UHGV virus genome: UHGV-0117053
DNA: 64,000 bases
Origin: a virus
Direction: 5' to 3' (one strand)
Below the pieces are notes generated by a model that saw only the letters and a list, made by a program, of their open reading frames with translations, was not told the origin of the DNA and made no database searches. The translations under genes were made by a program, and so were the position numbers. This document shows, in pieces, positions 32,875-36,883 of the stretch. Each line of letters starts with the position of its first letter. Positions within the stretch are counted from its first letter, which is position 1.

Positions 32875-33255
32875 CTACTCCGCAGAACCATACAATCTAC
32901 GTAACGTGTCGGCGACAGAAGATACAGATATCTCGCCAGTCGCAGCGCCTACAGTAAGGTCTGCCAGTTCAGGTGAATCAAATACCTGCACCCCGTTACG
33001 GCGTAGAAATAGCAGCGCACTGTTTAGCGCGGTACGCTTATTGGCATCATTGAATATATGCCCTCTCGCCGTAGCCACCAGGTAGGTGGCGGAGACTTCG
33101 AAAAGGTCGGTGATCTCTTCGTAGGCAACTCTGGCCTGAACTCTCCCGATAATGGCCTCTGCCCTACCCGGATCTGACATTCCCGGCAGGCCGCCGTAGC
33201 GGCTTATATTCGCATCATGAAGCGCAATAAGTTCTTCCGGTGATATATGCCTCAT
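32875..33255 (-). CDS. doc: Doc toxin (Fic-fold kinase)
   Basis: 126 aa beginning [25 protein letters not shown]. Confidence 0.95.
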
Positions 33256-33476
33256 TATCGGTTAACCAGTTCCTTGTTGGTGGAGTCCAGGGTGTCAAAC
33301 AGGGATGCAAATTCAGCATCCAGCGCCGCTTTTTTGTAGGCTTCGAAAGTAGCCTTGCTGACAATTACTGCTGGCTCACGGCCTCTGCGGGTGATTTCAA
33401 CCTCTTCCCCGGCTTCAACATTGTTGAGCACTTCAGAAAGGTTGCCACGCGCGGTACGGAAGTTAATGGATTGCAT
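33255..33476 (-). CDS. phd: Phd antitoxin
   Basis: 73 aa beginning [32 protein letters not shown]; stop overlaps the doc start. Confidence 0.95.
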
Positions 33477-33548
33477 AAACACCTCGTGTACTCGTTATGT
33501 GTACACAATTATAAACTTCACAGGCATAAAGCACCAGCACTTTGCAGC

Positions 33549-33938
33549 TTAAATAACCGGACAATCATCAAATTCCCCACTTCGGGCATCATTGATGACA
33601 TGAGTGATCACACCAAAAACAGCATTACTGCCCGTGTATCCATCGTCATCTACTGGTAACGCCTCTTTCTTCCCGGTGCTTAAGTCCTCCAGGTGCTGGC
33701 GCGGATACTTCCTGTATCTCTTTATGCGATATTCACCCTCCATAGCGCACACAAGCAGAGAACCATCAACCGGAGTAAGCGAGGAATCAACCACCAGCAA
33801 AGCACCCTGCAATATTCCCTCACGGTGATGGCTATCAGCTGCCCGCATGAAGTAGGTCGCTGAAGGATGTCTAATTATCTGCTGATCAAGAGAAATTCGG
33901 CTTTCAACATAATCCGCCGCAGGAGAAGGGAAGCCCAT
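33549..33938 (-). CDS. humD: HumD (UmuD-like LexA-family S24 peptidase)
   Basis: 129 aa with UmuD-like domain; LexA box immediately upstream. Confidence 0.9.
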   Translation of the reverse strand: MGFPSPAADYVESRISLDQQIIRHPSATYFMRAADSHHREGILQGALLVVDSSLTPVDGSLLVCAMEGEYRIKRYRKYPRQHLEDLSTGKKEALPVDDDGYTGSNAVFGVITHVINDARSGEFDDCPVI

Positions 33939-33956
33939 AGCGTTTTACCTCAATGA

Positions 33957-33976
33957 TACTGTTTATTCATACAGTA
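33957..33976. promoter_or_regulatory. LexA (SOS) box TACTGTTTATTCATACAGTA
   Basis: CTGT-N8-ACAG palindrome 19 nt upstream of the humD start. Confidence 0.8.
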
Positions 33977-34061
33977 TACATTAAAAAGGCATAGTTTGTG
34001 AAAGCGGGGTTTGTAGGCGCGCCACGCTGGGGGCTAATCACATTTCTCCCCCATCTTGCCG

Positions 34062-34334
34062 TTATTTTTTTGGTGCATCCTCGTTCTGATACACCGGATC
34101 GCTCCCTTTTGGCAACTGGAGGCTTAACTGCCGATAGTGCCGTAACCGTTCCATGAAATAGGTGCGCAGATTCTCTGGTTGCTCGCGGGCTACCTGTTCA
34201 GCTATGACAGGTATGTTCAATCGCTCTTTGTACGCCACACCGCTGGCAGCCAGATCAACGTTAACCTTATCCCGTTCTTCCTGACTTTTAGCTGCAATAT
34301 TCCAATCGTGCATATCAAATCCCATCCAGAACAA
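34062..34334 (-). CDS. hot: Hot, homolog of DNA polymerase III theta subunit
   Basis: [43 protein letters not shown] aligns with E. coli HolE. Confidence 0.85.
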
Positions 34335-34762
34335 TTGCGTAACGACTATTATTTAACCAGCAAAGTAACTTTTAATTTTTTTTCTTTTCCCATTGATTTT
34401 TGTGCACAGCTTATCTGCCTTGCCGTGCGCAGAATCAACTTTTTTCTTCCTGATTTATCCACAAAGTTATGCACTTGCAAGAGGGCCATTTTCTAAATAT
34501 TGTGATGTTTCACAAATGAAATGAATTTTGATTAATGAAGATAAGGAGAAAATTTGAGATGCAATCATGACGTTAATAGATAGGGTCTGCATTACAGACC
34601 CCATCCGCATCAAGGAATTAGCCGTTCCCTGATGTTGTTCCGAAAACATGTGCCGTAAGCTCACGTTAACGACTTTCTTTCACCGAATCCAACTATATAG
34701 GGGTTGGGTTTCTACGTCAACGTGAGCAAGTGCTCCTTTACATTTGACAAGGAACCACCTTA

Positions 34763-34900
34763 ATGACTGCTTTTTTTCAGTTCCTGAGTGCATTTTTAGA
34801 TGCGCCTGTTATTAGCCAGATTCTGGCGATCATCCTCATCATCGTTTTGATTTTGCTTTTAAGGTCAGTAAAAAATGGAATTATGCACTGGCTTACTTAA
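34763..34900 (+). CDS. Candidate 45-aa hydrophobic small protein (MTAFFQFLSAFLDAPVISQILAIILIIVLILLLRSVKNGIMHWLT)
   Basis: ORF below the track cutoff with GGAACCACC upstream; one strongly hydrophobic helix; lies in a 640-bp ORF-free, hairpin-rich interval. Confidence 0.35.
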   Translation: MTAFFQFLSAFLDAPVISQILAIILIIVLILLLRSVKNGIMHWLT

Positions 34901-34974
34901 TGTTCAGTGAAACATTAAAATCTCCTTGATGTGGAAACAATCATTTTCTGTATGTGCTGGTGGGTACCTGTAGT

Positions 34975-35337
34975 TCAGCTTTCGTTGGCATTTAACTTCG
35001 TCTTTGCTTTCTCCACCAGCAACTTCCAGATGCCTATTTCATTAGCAGCCGCCTTGATGGCGGCATAAAAAGCATCTTGCTGATCGTAACGCTGAATCTG
35101 TTTTTTCAGTTTTGCCTCCACCAATTTAATTTCATTACGTGCTTTCTGAAGCCGCAGCGCCGCCCGGTTACGTCTGTTCTTGTATAGCGCGTTAATCTCT
35201 GATAATTGCTTTAATTTACCAGCCTGACTGCGGATTATCGCCTCTCTGACTTCTGCCGTGCGTCTCATCTGATCTCTTAAGAGTTCACCGTTTTCGATAA
35301 TTCTTTCAAGGTGTTTGATGTGATCTGCAACTCTCAT
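34975..35337 (-). CDS. Coiled-coil hypothetical protein
   Basis: 120 aa, stop overlaps the upstream gene start region. Confidence 0.55.
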   Translation of the reverse strand: MRVADHIKHLERIIENGELLRDQMRRTAEVREAIIRSQAGKLKQLSEINALYKNRRNRAALRLQKARNEIKLVEAKLKKQIQRYDQQDAFYAAIKAAANEIGIWKLLVEKAKTKLNANES

Positions 35338-36371
35338 ACTTCACCCTCGCTTGTATCGCCAGCATCCACCAGCGGCAATAAAGCCCTGGCCATCTTATGA
35401 ACCAATAGTGCATCAATAATGCCAAGCGTATGCCCCGGCTTAATGTTTAATGCCGCCTCAAGGTGACACCTTTCCAGGCCACTTTTCTCGGCTTGTTTAT
35501 GATGATCTGGTGTAATAACGTCGCCCAAAACACGGCTAATTCTTTCTCGTAATTGCTGGGTGCCAGCACACTTGATCGCTGTATCGTGGAGACGGTTAAC
35601 CAGTTCGCGATAAACATGCGGCTTAATTCGGATACGTTCACCGGTGACGCCCTTTCCTGGTGCTGGCACCGAACTATCCGGAGTTACCGGAGAGTTGCCA
35701 GCCAGTCTACGCAAAACAGCCTTAACAGCCTCAATACGGTCATCATCGCAATTTTCCAGCGTATCTATGCGGTCGAGCATGATGATGGCGTTATCAATAT
35801 CAGGATTGCCAGTCCACTCATTACCGCGATTGGATTCGGCAGCCTGGTTGCCAGATGCTGGCTGATTGTCGGCTTGGCTATAGCTAACAGCACGGCAGGC
35901 ATCCTCTACGTTCTTCACTGCATCTGCGCAGTAGTTATAGCGATTGCATTCCACTAACTTCTGCTTGAGATTTTCAATTGCTTGCGCGACATCAGCCTGT
36001 ATTGGCGGAACGGCTGTTTGCTCTCGAACGTCATTAGTCGCTATCGGTTCTGCTGCCAACTGACTGGCATATTTGTTAATGGTAACGATAAGCTCTTGCT
36101 CGGCCTCATCCAGACAATCACCGATACCTCGCCTGTCACCGTCAAAATCATCGAAATCGGCACGAATCCTGGCAACCTCCCGGATTGCGGACAACACTTC
36201 ACCAGGAATAAGCGGAGAGTTGCCCGATAGTACATTCTGCTCCAGCGATGCCAGAGCAATTCGTGCCAGTTCTTCCGCTTCTTCTGCTGGCAGTACAACG
36301 TTGCTACCAGGTCCGTATGTTTCGCGCCACTGCTTGATTGTCAGTAGTCGCTCTTTGGTAATAGTGATCAT
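35334..36371 (-). CDS. Hypothetical protein (345 aa)
   Basis: Long ORF in an operon of overlapping genes. Confidence 0.6.
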   Translation of the reverse strand: MITITKERLLTIKQWRETYGPGSNVVLPAEEAEELARIALASLEQNVLSGNSPLIPGEVLSAIREVARIRADFDDFDGDRRGIGDCLDEAEQELIVTINKYASQLAAEPIATNDVREQTAVPPIQADVAQAIENLKQKLVECNRYNYCADAVKNVEDACRAVSYSQADNQPASGNQAAESNRGNEWTGNPDIDNAIIMLDRIDTLENCDDDRIEAVKAVLRRLAGNSPVTPDSSVPAPGKGVTGERIRIKPHVYRELVNRLHDTAIKCAGTQQLRERISRVLGDVITPDHHKQAEKSGLERCHLEAALNIKPGHTLGIIDALLVHKMARALLPLVDAGDTSEGEV

Positions 36372-36883
36372 GCCGCGTTTCCTTCTTTCTTATTAACAAT
36401 TACACCGTCATATATTTCATTAAGGTGCCCTCTTAACTCCATGCGCCTTAATGCAGATAACATGTAATCGCATTCAACCTGCTTATTTCCAGTAAATGGC
36501 TTATCGTCAGGATTACCCCAACAGCAATTACCCTTGGGCCACCCATGTACTTTCCGTACTCTTCCGTTAACAACGTGAAGTAATCCCCAGCCAGGTGGTA
36601 AATCCTCAATTGAAATAATTCCCGGCTCACTAATAAAGAATCGCCAGTCGCCCATTCCAAGAGACGGATTTTTACGAAAACGCTTTTTTCTATCTGCCAA
36701 CAAGTCAGCACGAGAACATTTCGCCTCTATCAGGCATGATGCTGAATTTCTGAATCCCATAGCATCTGGCTGTTCTCCGGTACTGGTTACAGCTATAAAG
36801 CGGTCATGAAAACAAACCTTGAACCCGTTGCGCTTAAGGAACTTGTACGCAATCTGACAGAGTTCGCGGTGTGTTAACGCCAT
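36368..36883 (-). CDS. Putative PD-(D/E)XK-type nuclease
   Basis: About 171 aa from MALTHREL; D...GEQPD...IEAK motif spacing; ATG 2 nt after the stop of the upstream small ORF. Confidence 0.5.
   Translation of the reverse strand: MALTHRELCQIAYKFLKRNGFKVCFHDRFIAVTSTGEQPDAMGFRNSASCLIEAKCSRADLLADRKKRFRKNPSLGMGDWRFFISEPGIISIEDLPPGWGLLHVVNGRVRKVHGWPKGNCCWGNPDDKPFTGNKQVECDYMLSALRRMELRGHLNEIYDGVIVNKKEGNAA

Follow-up and report, generated by a model that had tools for sequence, protein, structure and literature searches.

Convergent promoters and a possible antisense-controlled membrane peptide in the hot-pmgV gap of a P1-type phage-plasmid

In type I toxin-antitoxin loci of the hok/sok type, a hydrophobic peptide of about 50 residues is encoded behind a weak promoter and a long structured leader, and a strong opposing promoter within the leader drives a short, structured antisense RNA that covers an upstream Shine-Dalgarno (SD) sequence and start codon, not the toxin's own ribosome-binding site. 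The locus described here lies in the UHGV virus genome UHGV-0117053, a P1-type phage-plasmid of which a stretch of 64,000 nucleotides (the window) was analyzed; it fills the gap between P1's hot and pmgV genes (34335-34974, from the hot start to the pmgV stop), whose length of 640 bp agrees with that given in an earlier note on this DNA. We tentatively interpret this interval as a pair of convergent promoters at which an antisense RNA controls a small membrane peptide, as in type I toxin-antitoxin loci. The features that carry this interpretation are a 45-codon open reading frame (ORF) that survives in the most divergent relatives, an invariant opposing promoter in the leader ahead of it, and a predicted RNA fold that favors the antisense strand.

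As predicted from its sequence, the cassette would resemble hok/sok of plasmid R1, pndA/pndB, and srnB/srnC in its small hydrophobic peptide, its leader, its promoter pair, and the coverage of upstream SD and start codons, and like hok/sok it sits on a plasmid-like replicon next to another addiction system. The earlier note had likened the region to type I toxin or small membrane-protein loci, and part of that architecture is borne out: a hydrophobic ORF with an SD, an upstream promoter, and an opposing promoter with a structured antisense candidate in the leader. Other parts are missing, in that there is no sequence match to Hok or any known toxin family, the peptide gene has no overlapping mok-like frame, and the arms of the long inverted repeat lie on either side of a promoter instead of both falling within the candidate antisense RNA. 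The tisB/istR-1 and dinQ/agrB loci also encode small membrane peptides, the site at which their mRNA is targeted likewise lies far ahead of the ribosome-binding site, and they share a DNA-damage or replication context with the present locus, whose neighbors are humD, with a LexA box, and hot. However, their RNAs are short, divergently encoded small RNAs with partial complementarity, whereas the antisense RNA proposed here would be fully complementary to its target; and the tisB and dinQ toxin promoters are controlled by LexA, whereas the promoter ahead of the present peptide carries DnaA boxes and no LexA box.

Taken singly, none of the four features in the earlier note stands out; they gain weight when the interval is compared between relatives. 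Such relatives were sought in phage, plasmid, and E. coli genome collections, in three pattern scans of IMG/VR, in a locus search anchored on PmgV, and in two scans of species-representative genomes. All of these searches together yielded only three lineages: the P1 type, the P7/SJ46 type (about 90% identical over the interval), and the type represented by pRHB27-C18_2, here called the 77% lineage after its identity. One extra locus from the IMG/VR pattern scans (L065) proved to be an unrelated AT-rich chance match, and distant blastn searches of plasmids and E. coli genomes brought up nothing beyond these three lineages. The segment from about 34425 to about 34968 is kept as a unit while its surroundings change: hot lies to its left and pmgV to its right in the P1 type, non-hot DNA and pmgV take these places in the P7 and SJ46 type, and in the 77% lineage the left neighbor is hot and the right one a gene for type I restriction-modification.

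The 45-codon ORF (34763-34900, plus strand), found where the earlier note had placed it, is preceded by the SD AAGGA at 34749-34753 and encodes MTAFFQFLSAFLDAPVISQILAIILIIVLILLLRSVKNGIMHWLT, which we read as one transmembrane helix (about residues 16-33) followed by a basic C-terminal tail. Its product is thus a hydrophobic peptide of fewer than 60 residues with a predicted transmembrane helix, and its Kyte-Doolittle hydropathy, taken over 17 residues, peaks at 3.3 in the window and at 2.8 in the 77% lineage. ORFs as small as this one are frequent in the interval on all frames, so that the significance of this one lies in its conservation rather than in its mere existence. In the 77% lineage the start, the stop, and all 45 codons are kept, the product (MIVFFQFLSAFLNAPVLSQVLAIVFIVVLIWFFKSVINRGVRWLI) is 60% identical at the amino acid level with mainly I/L/V/F exchanges, and the SD is retained (AAGGA becoming GAGGA). 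No insertion or deletion (indel) separates this lineage from the window inside the ORF, against six events in about 340 nt of flanking sequence, and no other frame stays open across the span. When the 31 observed substitutions were placed at random in a neutral simulation, the frame was left intact in 17% of the trials (P = 0.17); within the helix codons, only 1 of 14 changes hits the second codon position. The ORF is intact in 58 of the 59 assessable copies. The ORF, whose lack of conservation would have spoken against the reading of the earlier note, is the only frame of the interval to survive in the most divergent lineage. The frames upfM (34680-34793), upfN (34467-34664), and upfO (34349-34489), which the P1 reference annotation (AF234172, NC_005856) places on the minus strand without an assigned function, are not preserved in diverged relatives, where the 77% lineage shows indels or changed starts: one-base indels, one at 34753 and one after 34633, together with an insertion of 19 nt disrupt upfM and upfN there. 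The upfO frame overlaps DNA homologous to E. coli noncoding sequence.

Several further observations concern the ORF and its surroundings. Codons 3 to 5 contain a run of seven T residues (34771-34777), and in phage vB_EcoM-813R1 the loss of one T from this run cuts the ORF down to 7 residues. A word-indexed protein search and phmmer found only P1-like copies, several of them with altered C termini, and four variants in the protein databases have frameshifted or replaced C termini; either sequencing error or real inactivation is possible. Homology reaches about 65 nt beyond the ORF. Directly after its stop, at 34901-34918, lies the near-palindrome AATGTTCAGTGAAACATT, which in P1 is a perfect 9+9 palindrome (AATGTTTCA-G-TGAAACATT), with no U-tract on either strand; the hairpin after the ORF was rejected as an intrinsic terminator, having an inadequate U-tract and not being called by the scan. 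A hairpin that would mask the SD of the ORF through the anti-SD sequence CUCCUU (34733-34738) was also ruled out, as it is not conserved in the 77% lineage.

Upstream of the ORF on the same strand, the possible sigma-70 promoter seen by the earlier note is present (34475-34503; TTGCAA at 34475-34480, a spacer of 17 nt, and TATTGT at 34498-34503; predicted start at about 34510) and coincides with the "nrdA-like promoter" and DnaA box that GenBank M95666 records on the plus strand (34438-34493). With only 8 of 12 consensus positions matched, it falls under the threshold of our promoter scan. The segment 34379-34493 is homologous to the regulatory region upstream of E. coli nrdA (83.5% identity over 115 bp), and the E. 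coli ORF downstream of the homologous segment encodes the large subunit of ribonucleotide reductase; the host promoter there is under DnaA regulation. Two tandem DnaA boxes on the plus strand, TTATCCACA at 34455-34463 and TTATGCACT at 34467-34475, match the consensus exactly and are invariant in all lineages, and the second abuts the -35 hexamer, which is itself invariant; the -10 hexamer is TACTGT in the 77% lineage. By homology and by its two boxes abutting the -35 hexamer, this is a DnaA-box promoter of the nrdA type. Compared with E. coli nrdAB, the homologous 115 bp include both DnaA boxes and the -35 hexamer, and the -10 hexamer lies at the same spacing, so that both hexamers are positionally homologous to those of nrdA; the homology, however, ends just before the -10 hexamer, and all transcribed sequence is unrelated to nrdA. 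The right-hand junction is the same in all three P1-like lineages, which points to a single capture of the nrdA regulatory region from the host.

Over 130 bp, the nrdA-derived segment of P7-type plasmids (L007, 1510-1638) shares 96% identity with the E. coli chromosome, compared with 83.5% for the P1 type and 77.6% for the 77% lineage; this suggests that P7-type elements later underwent gene conversion with the chromosome of the host. D6-like E. coli plasmids (L009, 2010-2660, and L010) also have this DnaA-box promoter derived from nrdA, with an E. coli-type -10 hexamer; it lies directly beside the humD LexA box, and the downstream sequence is unrelated to the P1 cassette. There a terminator-like hairpin, AAAAAGCCCAG...CTGGGCTTTTT (about 2207-2237), follows about 70 to 80 nt downstream of the -10 hexamer, and a 27-codon ORF (2539-2622; product MVNLLFKIVPPMFAIIKAIIEYVNQRP) has its own terminator at 2635-2659. 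The hairpin and this ORF share no homology with the P1 cassette but may form an analogous module of small RNA and small peptide. When the D6-like interval was aligned locally, only a 10-mer matched, and a search with a covariance model of the minus-strand RNA described below detected no copy in D6-like plasmids and none in the rest of the window.

Between the two features of the plus strand lies a conserved core (34538-34727). Over 34532-34711 the P1 type and the 77% lineage diverge by about 10%, against 25 to 30% or more in the flanks, and 34641-34726 has only four variable sites in all collected sequences. Here the minus strand carries a near-consensus sigma-70 promoter (34692-34720; TTGACG, 17 nt, TATAGT; predicted start at about 34685), which in P1 was predicted as "PupfN." It agrees with the consensus at 10 of 12 positions, is the best match in the scanned stretch 33900-35400, and has both hexamers invariant in all lineages. 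This promoter is convergent with the nrdA-like promoter, with about 175 bp between the predicted transcription starts. At its -10 hexamer lies CTATATAG, which we considered as an NrdR box and rejected, since by eye the palindrome is 2 nt too short.

The long-range inverted repeat enclosing about 43 nt that the earlier note had pointed out is present as well (arms 34659-34671 and 34715-34727; 12 of 13 positions complementary, 43 nt between them), and by our own estimate about 0.04 to 0.1 such repeats are expected by chance. The right arm covers the -35 hexamer of the minus promoter; the left arm corresponds to about +14 to +26 of the predicted transcript and is part of stem-loop 1 of its fold. 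Because the repeat straddles the promoter, its two arms cannot pair within a minus-strand RNA made from that promoter. Pairing would be confined to the plus-strand leader, unless the repeat acts as DNA. Between the arms, the plus strand can form a 10-bp hairpin (34685-34711) that includes three G-U pairs; this was rejected as an intrinsic terminator for its inadequate U-tract and was not called by the scan. The arm was also considered as a repeated operator and rejected: no further copies occur above chance in the window.

The candidate structured antisense RNA (34536-34690, minus strand) is predicted to fold into stem-loop 1 (34640-34672), stem-loop 2 (34608-34634), stem-loop 3 (34578-34606), and a helix that closes the structure (34678-34690 with 34539-34551). 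The perfect 7-bp hairpin GGGTCTG-CATTA-CAGACCC is the core of stem-loop 3 and extends imperfectly to 34579-34605; the earlier note described it correctly except that its coordinates were one base off (34583-34601, not 34584-34602). Since about 0.2 such hairpins are expected per 640 random bp by our own estimate, it is not significant by itself. The fold as a whole is biased toward the minus strand, at -50.4 kcal/mol (z -4.4) compared with -37.2 kcal/mol (z -2.3) on the plus strand in the window and at -44.5 compared with -32.8 kcal/mol in the 77% lineage; the difference of 13.2 kcal/mol in the window was matched or beaten by 9 of 400 dinucleotide shuffles. The plus-strand z-scores are modest in all three lineages, and eight G-U pairs of the minus-strand consensus fold would turn into A-C mismatches there. 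Folded separately, the 77% lineage gives the same three stem-loops and closing helix. Stem changes in that lineage include one compensatory change in the hairpin, T34586-A34598 to C-G (U-A to C-G in the RNA), one G-U to A-U, and one A-U to G-U, and in the region of stem-loop 2 all three changes lie within the loop. With respect to the structure and covariance check that the earlier note had asked for, the strand bias and the compensatory pair speak for a structured RNA, while the covariation term computed over the three lineages is close to zero. The structured interval that the note described is better accounted for on the strand that does not carry the ORF. The 3' end of the candidate RNA could, on this model, lie after stem-loop 3 at about 34575 or at about 34538, or the transcript could read through toward hot. 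In size (about 110 to 150 nt), its three stem-loops, a constitutive promoter, and full complementarity to a leader, the predicted RNA would be like RNA I of ColE1, CopA of R1, and c4 of P1; it differs from them in having no Rfam match and in that its target is neither a replication primer nor an antirepressor mRNA.

The start of the conserved core also carries signals for translation on the plus strand: a perfect SD, AAGGAG (34543-34548), is followed by a 3-codon ORF that starts with the ATG at 34559 and ends in a stop overlapping the start codon (ATG, 34567) of a 21-codon ORF (34567-34632), and the block 34540-34561 is invariant. Of the changes that the 21-codon ORF shows in the 77% lineage, 1 is synonymous and 6 are nonsynonymous (our own count from the alignment), so that the sequence of its peptide is not under selection. 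In the 77% lineage (L006, 1666-1689 and 2116-2132), a 17-bp complementarity of GCACACACAGGAAAUGG with CCAUUUUUUGUGUGUGC (-27.3 kcal/mol) would pair the 5' end predicted for the plus-strand mRNA with a site some 45 nt beyond the stop of the ORF, the equivalents in the window being about 34509-34525 and 34940-34960. The homologous pairing in the window reaches only -7.5 kcal/mol, which is within the top 7% of controls, although one pair is G-C in one of the two and A-U in the other; the paired sequences are CA/TG repeats, so that chance is a possible explanation. This pairing, which resembles the fold-back of hok, is strong only in the 77% lineage and weak here.

Taken together, our tentative model is that the weak plus-strand promoter with its captured nrdA DnaA-box region would start an mRNA consisting of a leader of about 250 nt and the coding sequence of the 45-residue single-pass membrane peptide. 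The near-consensus minus promoter inside the leader would fire back toward the plus promoter and would yield a highly structured RNA, perfectly complementary to the conserved part of the leader including its SD and start codons. In the prophage state, this strong antisense promoter would hold peptide synthesis off through transcription collision and through a duplex with the leader. A shift in the balance, for example after loss of the element or a changed occupancy of the boxes by DnaA, would then allow the peptide, with whatever toxicity it may have, to be made and inserted into the inner membrane. Control of this sort is known from type I toxin-antitoxin loci and from further small membrane proteins that are gated by antisense RNA.

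A number of points weigh against this model. The leader ORFs end at 34632 and 34725, and none overlaps the 45-codon ORF, which starts at 34763; the antisense RNA would cover the SD and starts of the leader but not the ribosome-binding site of the ORF, so that the model does not explain how silencing would pass from the leader to the ORF. In the scan of 33900-35400, neither predicted transcript is followed by a clear intrinsic terminator. At the level of the coding sequence, a ratio of nonsynonymous to synonymous substitution rates (dN/dS) of 0.45 is weak and does not separate the ORF frame from the others, for which reason it was dropped as a discriminator of frame, and over the whole ORF the three codon positions change about equally often. 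The peptide has no Pfam, NCBIfam, PHROG, or PADLOC family below E = 0.05, the same scans placed the other small ORFs of the interval in no meaningful family apart from the P1-only PHROG of UpfM, and an exhaustive phmmer search of 1.84 billion representative proteins returned P1-like copies only and none beyond P1-like elements. It is no member of the known type I toxin families (Hok, Ldr, TisB, Ibs, ShoB, Fst, and others), and, as judged by sequence comparison, the cassette belongs to no known toxin family. On the side of the RNA, the RNAalifold covariation term of about zero goes with a single compensatory pair, the evidence from covariation being thin because there are only three sequence lineages, and the innermost hairpin at 34685-34711 has its G-U pairs working on the plus strand. 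The searchable literature yielded no report of a transcript, of translation, of a small protein, or of a phenotype for the interval, and the dispensability of upfN and upfO described below, while neutral for the model, points to no essential role.

Other explanations share much of the same evidence. In the main rival, the minus promoter and the structured RNA would be a vegetative or lysogenic promoter and long 5' leader of hot, the DnaA-box promoter would modulate hot expression through transcriptional interference, and the ORF would be incidental or unrelated; we consider this unlikely, but it has several points in its favor. The hot gene lies on the same strand about 350 nt downstream with no convincing terminator between, it is downstream of the core on both sides of the sole deep comparison (P1 type and 77% lineage), the annotators of P1 placed the promoter upstream of upfN, upfO, and hot, and we infer that control of a replication accessory gene by DnaA would make biological sense. 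Against it, elements of the P7 and SJ46 type retain the whole core and promoter without hot, although this argument is weak because their divergence is shallow; in addition, a late promoter of hot has already been mapped, and this reading leaves unexplained that the ORF survives, that its SD is kept, and that homology continues about 65 nt past it. Alternatively, the interval might act through the plus strand, its leader being a functional structured RNA (a cis-regulatory leader or attenuator for the ORF, or a noncoding RNA from the nrdA-like promoter) and the minus promoter being unused. The perfect SD, the ATG, and the coupled start and stop codons are all kept on that strand, the three G-U pairs of the hairpin at 34685-34711 work only there, the long inverted repeat can form only in that transcript, and the closing helix would sequester the leader SD on that strand too. 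We nevertheless find this reading improbable: the plus-strand fold is about 13 kcal/mol weaker with modest z-scores throughout, eight of its pairs would be A-C mismatches, and an invariant minus promoter that matches the consensus at 10 of 12 positions is unlikely to be idle.

The interval might also be regulatory DNA only, the arms of the inverted repeat serving as operator half-sites for a protein that clamps the minus promoter and the DnaA boxes titrating or responding to DnaA, with neither a small protein nor a functional RNA. The arms do flank that promoter, at the -35 hexamer and at about +14 to +26, within the most conserved 86 nt with their four variable sites. As the arm motif is not found elsewhere in the window above chance, the outermost arm positions (34660 and 34727) are changed in the 77% lineage, and a DNA-only role accounts neither for the compensatory change nor for the concentration of substitutions in loops nor for an ORF that survives, we regard such a purely DNA-level function as very improbable. 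Finally, it is hardly credible that the P1 reference annotation is right and that UpfM, UpfN, and UpfO are encoded on the minus strand. These genes are annotated in both reference records, and UpfM has its own PHROG family, made up of P1-like sequences only; however, the upfM and upfN frames are broken in the 77% lineage, upfO overlaps noncoding homology to the host, the Upf proteins have no family match beyond P1 itself, and PGAP does not call any of the three.

The window is 99.9% identical to phage vB_EcoM-813R1 and 98.7% to P1 over 34300-35000. The gap is bounded by two minus-strand genes, hot (34062-34334), which encodes a homolog of the theta subunit of DNA polymerase III, and pmgV (34975-35337). 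The mapped late promoter of hot, LPhot (34348-34371, minus strand; -10 hexamer AATAAT at 34348-34353 and -22 box at 34363-34371; coordinates taken over from the P1 annotation in AF234172 and M95666), adjoins the cassette and lies outside it, and the P1 reference also lists three predicted sigma-70 promoters on the minus strand of the interval. The 45-codon ORF is missing from the P1 reference, but records of P1 already cover much of the interval, which the earlier note did not know: LPhot, the nrdA-like promoter with a DnaA box (in M95666), the predicted PupfN, and upfM, upfN, and upfO. In RefSeq the ORF is the hypothetical protein WP_000123562.1 (PGAP, P1-like plasmids), and in phage SJ46 it is J46_0085. 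The promoters, one of them as a prediction only, and the ORF as a hypothetical protein are thus already known, while a combined account of the survival of the ORF against the loss of the upf frames, the strand-biased fold, the logic of convergent promoters, and a single capture from nrdA was not found in the searchable literature. By CRISPR interference, upfN and upfO are nonessential for lytic growth of P1 (PMC10695390); the deletion survey, as cited in that paper, also rates both as nonessential, and upfM, which has no usable protospacer-adjacent motif for CRISPR interference, is rated nonessential by the deletion survey only, again as cited there (PMC10695390). An Rfam scan of 33000-36500 on both strands gave no match with E ≤1.

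The proximity of humD that the earlier note had remarked on is real, and humD is nearer than in P1 because lxr is absent here: only 123 bp (33939-34061) separate the humD start from the hot stop, whereas the corresponding gap in P1 measures about 750 bp and contains the 573-bp lxr. The lxr gene is also missing from vB_EcoM-813R1. A palindrome resembling a LexA box, TACTGTTTATTCATACAGTA, lies at about 33957-33976. In plasmid NZ_AP026785.1, the 641-bp interval matches at 100% in two pieces over 1417 bp and an IS1A transposase is annotated under the match, which indicates that IS1 has apparently inserted within the interval.

P1 is among the most used and best annotated phages, and P1-like phage-plasmids often carry resistance genes in E. 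coli and Salmonella. If the minus promoter and structured RNA belong to a leader of hot, the gain would be more modest, namely, a better promoter map for that gene. If the antisense model is true, upfM, upfN, and upfO would be annotation artifacts, and a small membrane protein and an antisense RNA would have been overlooked; the captured DnaA-regulated host promoter would link the control of host replication to a prophage membrane peptide, and the cassette would add a new, family-less example to the repertoire of type I toxin-antitoxin systems. A stronger proposal, which we hold to be quite doubtful, is that P1 and its relatives carry a switch like those of type I toxin-antitoxin systems, in which the nrdA-derived promoter would tie the peptide to DnaA and replication status and the constitutive structured antisense RNA would silence it; this would be a second, RNA-based addiction or dormancy module beside phd/doc, one that senses host replication and not plasmid loss alone.

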